NCBI GenBank assembly: GCA_965178125.1
Contig: OZ237736.1
Coordinates: 558,001-622,000, forward strand
Reading direction: 5' to 3'
Source: Bilabrum cf. latius
Taxonomy: Eukaryota
Length of the DNA: 64,000 nucleotides
The notes beneath the pieces were generated by a model. That model had not been told where the DNA came from. It worked only from the letters and a program-made list of their open reading frames with translations, and ran no database searches. The translations under genes and the position numbers were made by a program. Of this stretch, positions 30,159 to 33,812 are shown piece by piece. Position 1 is the stretch's first letter. Each line of letters begins with the position of its first letter.

Positions 30159-33812
<3,654 letters not shown>

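Follow-up and report, generated by a model that had tools for sequence, protein, structure and literature searches.

A conserved glutamine codon spelled TAG in a USP gene points to a nuclear UAG=Gln code in a probable stramenopile

INTRODUCTION

To our knowledge, UAG and UAA are nearly always reassigned as a pair, and cases in which UAG alone is reassigned are rare. The UAR=Gln code (table 6; Tetrahymena, hexamitids, Ulvophyceae, and Amoeboaphelidium) includes UAG=Gln. UAG is uncoupled from UAA, as it is in the DNA described here, in the rhizarian exLh and the TARA ciliates (UAG=Leu) and in Scotinosphaera (UAG=Ser). The same code that we propose here, with UAG alone read as Gln and UAA still a stop, was described for Iotanema spirale (Fornicata; Panek et al. 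2017, PMC5304391), which belongs to a supergroup unrelated to the present host. UAG=Gln was also described for the ciliates Hartmannula sinica, Trochilia petrani, and Protocruzia tuzeti (McGowan et al. 2024, PMC11687900). In the phyllopharyngeans UAG is widely used, and that study found neither a dual meaning for UAG there nor a suppressor tRNA in H. sinica or T. petrani.

We analyzed a 64,000-nucleotide stretch of DNA (the window; plain coordinates are positions within it) together with the assembly that holds it. The best overall explanation, to which we give a probability of about 0.93, is that a stramenopile host uses a UAG=Gln code with a CUA-anticodon tRNA as decoder and an altered eRF1. 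This reading is built from sequence comparison. The nuclear code would be of the NCBI table 15 type, with UGA (dominant) and UAA as stops.

RESULTS

TAG occupies a conserved Gln column in an intact USP gene

The following features define the gene.

30246..33812, + strand: USP (peptidase C19) gene, intronless, 1188 codons from ATG to TGA, nine in-frame TAGs
30402..30404, + strand: catalytic Cys codon (Cys box)
30537..30539, + strand: upstream in-frame TAG
30663..30665, + strand: TAG as the conserved-Gln codon of the QxD motif, placed by motif alignment, homologue column, and Pfam UCH scores
30969, 31353, 32559, 32793, 32982, 33024, and 33621, + strand: the remaining in-frame TAGs
32322..32378, + strand: His box, catalytic His at 32322 and Asp at 32376

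The gene matches PF00443 at 190.8 bits, with the Cys box, the QxD motif, and the His box with its Asp all present. An earlier note on this DNA had claimed that both catalytic boxes are intact, as we also found, and that a stop at 30663 would separate the Cys from the His and Asp. That TAG does lie between them, and it is one of four there (30537, 30663, 30969, and 31353), not the only one.

The TAG at 30663 to 30665 is in frame in the context FHGYH[TAG]HDAQE and aligns with the first of the two Gln residues in the QQD motif of USP15 and USP4. A column not dominated by Gln had been named beforehand as grounds for rejecting the claim that TAG stands for this Gln; we found Q in 31 of 32 USP homologues, the remaining one being without a motif match (spurious extra matches elsewhere in seven proteins were disregarded). 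We also scored a fragment of the gene that contains two TAGs against Pfam UCH under eight readings of the codon. Q gave the highest score (78.1 bits), followed by K (75.0), S (74.9), E (74.4), X (73.9), Y (73.2), and L and W (72.7 each). Among the other USP loci of the genome, the same column is spelled CAG in 15, CAA in 2, and TAG in 1, with the motif matched in 18 of 30 loci; a second USP locus thus has TAG for the motif Gln. These comparisons suggest an intact USP of the ordinary kind, in which TAG spells a conserved Gln.

TAG is read through across the window

When the window (GC, 53 to 66%) is read through TAG, 13 open reading frames (ORFs) of at least 600 amino acids appear, with 95 TAGs inside them; 12 end in TGA and 1 in TAA, and several have Pfam domains. 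The following genes lie outside the USP gene.

3..16058, + strand: four tandem paralogues, the first partial; two columns have TAG in some copies and CAG in others
35893..45083, + strand: BK (Slo) potassium-channel gene; in-frame TAGs, one GT-AG intron of 101 nt (37702..37802)
48974..52411, − strand: HGSNAT-like gene with 4 TAGs
58939..62820, − strand: MutS-family gene (domains MutS_III and MutS_V); 9 to 10 TAGs read through

At one column of the tandem paralogues, TAG at 411 stands against CAG at 4946, 9481, and 14016; at the other, TAG at 6851 and 15915 stands against CAG at 2316 and 11386. The inverted ORF at 16142 to 20212 was considered as a further copy, proved to be unrelated on alignment and rhamnosidase-like, and was left out of this count. 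The array has a period of about 4535 bp and encodes a 1370-amino-acid protein with no Pfam match, and the C-terminal region of its final copy is divergent. The BK gene is very long, about 3000 codons with one intron and large low-complexity inserts.

Dynein genes identify the amino acid as Gln

We counted stop codons within 146 Pfam matches (28 dynein, 65 Ras, and 53 USP) and found 138 TAG, 4 TGA, and 2 TAA. TAG falls in Gln columns on four sampled contigs and in three gene families. In a sample of 48 long ORFs, taken from four 50-kb stretches plus the window, 43 contain TAG, and TAG makes up 13.6% of Gln codons.

The 19 dynein heavy-chain loci hold 270 in-frame TAGs in 61,982 codons. Compared with paralogues at 201 TAG sites having at least 12 aligned rows, the TAG profile lies at a Jensen-Shannon (JS) distance of 0.0035 from Gln, with Lys next at 0.071. 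At 181 TAG sites with at least 30 aligned residues from 150 outside homologues, the log-likelihood was +127 for Q, −68 for K, and −71 for E. Leu and Ser were rejected by both tests. Dynein columns conserved at 70% or more are Q17/E6/V1 at TAG (n = 24, so that 7 of 24 are non-Gln) and Q24/E5/R2 at CAA, and TAG is indistinguishable from CAA (Fisher P = 0.87) and from CAG (P = 0.34). Across the 19 dynein genes, the higher the GC3, the smaller the fraction of Gln codons spelled TAG (rho = −0.84), which is the behavior expected of a minor synonymous codon. The assignment of TAG to Gln in the earlier note is therefore supported, and it rests on these 181 to 201 dynein sites. The USP codon is, on this sequence evidence, one site of a genome-wide nuclear code.

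ORF length was tried as a discriminator and dropped, since reading through TGA opens as many frames as reading through TAG or more: 47 versus 37 ORFs of at least 300 amino acids in the window, and 28 versus 21 of at least 600 amino acids in 200 kb. A single dynein locus (L050, G000:C16:927051-937050) has a broken frame of 2404 plus 854 codons, which reflects either an intron or a frameshift.

A single CUA-anticodon tRNA is the candidate decoder

Of 780 tRNA candidates, 63 were scored with Rfam, a scope in which other decoders and intron-bearing genes could be missed. One has the anticodon for UAG.

G000:C23:907607-907679, − strand: tRNA with a CUA anticodon (L005), RF00005 score 69.8 bits, second of 48

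The gene is single copy, is followed by a T-run, and lies about 10 kb from a Ras-family match that contains an in-frame TAG. We found no second CUA tRNA (1 of 11 pattern matches is real, and the rest are not CUA tRNAs) and no UUA tRNA among 4 pattern matches, 2 of which are tRNA-Lys genes and 2 of which are not tRNAs. In our model this sole CUA tRNA would decode UAG and would be unable to pair with UAA.

The tRNA combines parts that resemble tRNA-Tyr with others that resemble tRNA-Gln(UUG). Overall it is identical to tRNA-Tyr at 50 of 73 positions, to tRNA-Gln(UUG) at 48, and to tRNA-Gln(CUG) at 44. Its acceptor stem matches the genome's tRNA-Tyr at 12 of 14 positions, including C1-G72, a score equaled in 1 of the 244 pairs formed with other tRNAs, and its anticodon stem is Tyr-like at 8 of 10 (4.5% of pairs do so). 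The D-stem (8 of 8, a score reached by 18% of pairs) and G73 are those of tRNA-Gln(UUG).

These Tyr-like stems leave room for another reading, in which the tRNA is still a Tyr acceptor, so that UAG means Tyr or a Gln/Tyr mix, or is inactive while near-cognate tRNA-Gln(CUG) reads UAG. C1-G72 is a eukaryotic Tyr determinant, and it speaks for a Tyr acceptor together with the anticodon stem. However, Tyr identity in eukaryotes needs A73 in addition to C1-G72 (PMC9976931), and the candidate has G73, which acts as a TyrRS antideterminant in E. coli tRNA-Ser (PMC9976931). The proteins point the same way: the mean Tyr frequency is 0.016 at TAG sites, close to the 0.014 at CAA and far from the 0.46 at TAC, and 1 of 181 TAG sites is dominated by aromatic residues. 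We consider this reading unlikely, and it is the strongest of the alternatives; a near-cognate decoder would be compatible with these data.

E. coli GlnRS depends on U35 together with the 10-25 pair, and it aminoacylates amber suppressors derived from other tRNAs (PMC9976931); together with the TyrRS rules these features make Gln charging of the candidate plausible by analogy. The cytosolic GlnRS, which we could align with the human and bacterial enzymes over the catalytic and anticodon domains, would charge the tRNA with Gln through U35, G10-C25, G73, and A37, and G73 would exclude TyrRS from the Tyr-like acceptor stem.

A more speculative proposal, to which we give distinctly less than even odds, is that the code is the first altered nuclear code among stramenopiles and that its decoder arose by a tRNA-Tyr-to-Gln identity switch. 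A tRNA-Tyr gene would have become an amber suppressor by G34C and would then have been re-addressed to GlnRS by A73G, G37A, and acquisition of a Gln-type D-stem, through mutation or gene conversion. If so, there was an intermediate stage at which UAG meant Tyr, or Tyr as well as Gln. Relatives of the tRNA were looked for in metagenomes, where 11 loci matched and none was CUA (2 are not tRNA genes, and the other 9 encode tRNAs for Met, His, or Gly). The 5' half is therefore a common tRNA motif, which weakens the argument for a Tyr origin of that half. A loose T-arm pattern gave 526 matches, below its control, and was uninformative.

Other tRNA genes of the assembly are unusual as well. Six tRNA-Met(CAU) calls resemble tRNA-Pro(UGG) (L061 at G000:C3:1096678-1097064, L025, L057, and L068 to L070), and a tRNA-Pro(UGG) gene lies about 300 bp from one tRNA-Met(CAU) call, its acceptor being identical to that of L025 at 12 of 14 positions. 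These copies represent a possible second anticodon recruitment, in which case identity switches may recur in this genome. The nuclear tRNA-Ile genes L011 and L065 have the anticodon GAU; the eukaryotic tRNA-Ile anticodon is normally AAU.

eRF1 is altered, and defined gene ends use TGA and TAA

The assembly has one eRF1 gene.

G000:C35 (L001): eRF1 gene, ending in TAA

It has three introns (L001, 1068 to 2941), and in one exon the last codon, right at the donor site, is a sense TAG. At codon 46, TAG takes the place of a Q found in 73 of 75 homologues. Codon 69 is also TAG, and here 90 of 95 homologues have Leu and 4 of 95 have Gln. A single site can thus mislead, and one site such as the USP codon, which the earlier note called the best single-site identification, is not the best basis for naming the amino acid.

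T32 (with GTS intact), E55, and S70 are kept. In contrast, D30 and V35 each occur in 0 of 84 homologues, A29 (inferred across an intron border) replaces a Gly present in 84 of 84, V60 occurs in 1 of 95, S129 in 7 of 104, and H130 in 0 of 104. These substitutions may have contributed to a loss of UAG recognition. On this model, eRF1 would have lost most UAG recognition via L69Q, N129S, K130H, G29A, N30D, I35V, and S60V (human numbering), changes predicted to surround the stop-binding pocket while T32, E55, and S70 are retained. In earlier work, the L69A change increased readthrough of UAG by slightly more than readthrough of the other stop codons, N129 was suggested as the residue that reads a G in third position, and N30A was without effect in yeast (PMC4381064). 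TAVNIKS is present in Euplotes eRF1b (PMC4695839), which weakens S60V as a cause.

The retained eRF1 residues would also suit a dual code, of the kind known from Condylostoma or Blastocrithidia, in which UAG is Gln inside genes but terminates translation close to transcript ends. We judged this with 30 Ras/Rab loci and the 48 long ORFs, a small sample that itself leaves some room for dual meaning. A prenylation-type Cys motif ends 20 of the 30 Ras/Rab loci, and these recognizable C termini are followed by TGA in 16 cases, TAA in 4, and TAG in none. Five Ras tails continue through a TAG past the domain, and one of them reaches a Cys motif. Near the ends of the 48 ORFs we counted 2 TAGs in 480 codons (the last 10 codons of each), then 5 in 480 and 3 in 480, and further in the rate was 4.4 to 6.1 per 1000; with such small counts there is neither a clear pile-up nor a clear depletion. 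TGA terminates 41 of the 48. We find dual meaning unlikely, somewhat more so than a Tyr acceptor, and prefer UAG=Gln throughout.

RNA-derived contigs retain the TAGs

Sequencing runs X5 and X8, from two studies, skip the GT-AG intron of the BK gene, and its removal joins both frames; those runs are thus RNA, although none of the runs is catalogued as such. A single X5 contig covers 30166 to 33970 with 0 differences, so that all nine USP TAGs are unedited, and run X7 covers 30277 to 31086, including the TAG site, also with 0 differences. For X5, X7, and X8, zero changes of any kind are listed, these being contigs from which rare variants are dropped in assembly. A transcript lacking the codon would count against the earlier note's claim; the RNA-derived contigs have it.

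Under the standard code, RNA editing could restore a sense codon, by U-to-C change of UAG to CAG, from which TAG is one change away, or by A-to-I change to UGG. The unedited TAGs in spliced X5 and in X7 argue against both, and the TAG profile is not Trp-like. Editing is already largely refuted as an explanation and we regard it as very improbable, with minor editing possible below what such contigs retain. That the gene is a pseudogene or a product of sequencing or assembly error, for which nothing speaks except the stop itself, is already refuted by the identical TAG in three other runs, by a relative in DNA run X9 (about 9% diverged, with 284 differences over about 3.1 kb; among those listed are 30653 and 30674 and none at 30663 to 30665), and by TAGs in conserved genes (eRF1, dyneins, and the MutS homologue).

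The host is probably related to Cafeteria

The window lies in a eukaryotic assembly of 48.6 Mb in 111 contigs. Its best named eRF1 match is Cafeteria roenbergensis (69%), and the best named dynein matches are oomycetes. In an eRF1 tree (one gene, 269 columns, and 35 rows, namely the query exon plus 34 of 120 eRF1 matches that were named or top ranked), the query groups with Cafeteria at 85/84, an unstarred node, inside a 98/97 clade with Bicosoecida sp. A cox1 search yielded matches that carry no organism names. We conclude that the host is very probably a stramenopile and, with less certainty, likely a bicosoecid; it is probably a flagellate protist related to Cafeteria.

The mitochondrial contig (G000:C111; L071 to L074) is 38.4 kb long with 24% GC, carries a UCA tRNA, and has 23 ORFs under table 4 versus 10 under table 1. 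ARAGORN found 10 tRNAs on it, and all 23 table 4 frames listed end in TAA. The contig reads UGA as Trp, as do the mitochondria of Cafileria (PMC6723347) and Cafeteria, a trait that is not exclusive to Bicosoecida.

The assembly contains two unlike 18S rRNA types, L034 (G000:C95) and L035 (G000:C12), and the tandem 1.7-kb 18S array sits on a 1.3-Mb contig. We take the 18S on C95 to be of dinoflagellate type, and it probably comes from a co-cultured organism in a mixed culture.

Relatives of the host exist: X9 has about 9% DNA divergence over window positions 30100 to 39200, and protein P0035 has 88% eRF1 identity. The UAG=Gln code may therefore be present in more than one species.

DISCUSSION

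A UAG-only change is seen here in a GC-rich, UGA-dominated genome, unlike those of ciliates. The long-contig assembly provides a candidate tRNA, GlnRS, and eRF1, and there are standard-code relatives, which makes two questions testable: how eRF1 can cease to recognize UAG while still recognizing UAA, and what lets GlnRS use a tRNA with a CUA anticodon. With TAG inside most long ORFs, standard annotation truncates most genes, and since sequencing runs with four different organism labels contain near-identical sequence, misannotated fragments may already sit in databases.

In the literature that we searched, in which subscription journals were thinly covered, we found no nuclear code change in a stramenopile or bicosoecid, and the available parts of PMC10089648 and PMC12153298 add no stramenopile case. 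Cafeteria and Halocafeteria are the closest named relatives of the host. The available portions of their genome texts (PMC6972860 and 10.64898/2026.06.25.734631) mention no variant nuclear code, and Cafeteria eRF1 has the common motifs, unlike the eRF1 described here.

Compared with table 6, the present code differs in that UAA is a stop, as at the end of eRF1 itself and of four Ras genes, and in that we found no UUA tRNA. The cases of exLh, the TARA ciliates, and Scotinosphaera involve another amino acid, and Leu and Ser are rejected here; the eRF1 of exLh is also altered at Leu69, to Ala, whereas here the residue is Gln. The recoded phyllopharyngeans end 87 to 98% of genes with UAA, in contrast to the predominance of TGA in our long ORFs, and the GC content of their class is 27 to 54% (PMC11687900), compared with the higher range in the window. 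In Iotanema, eRF1 carries T32G, whereas T32 is intact here. No decoding tRNA was identified in Iotanema, and the one expected was a derivative of tRNA-Gln(CUG) (PMC5304391), which is the least similar of the three tRNAs compared with our candidate. The code itself is thus already known as table 15; the lineage and the candidate decoder appear to be new.
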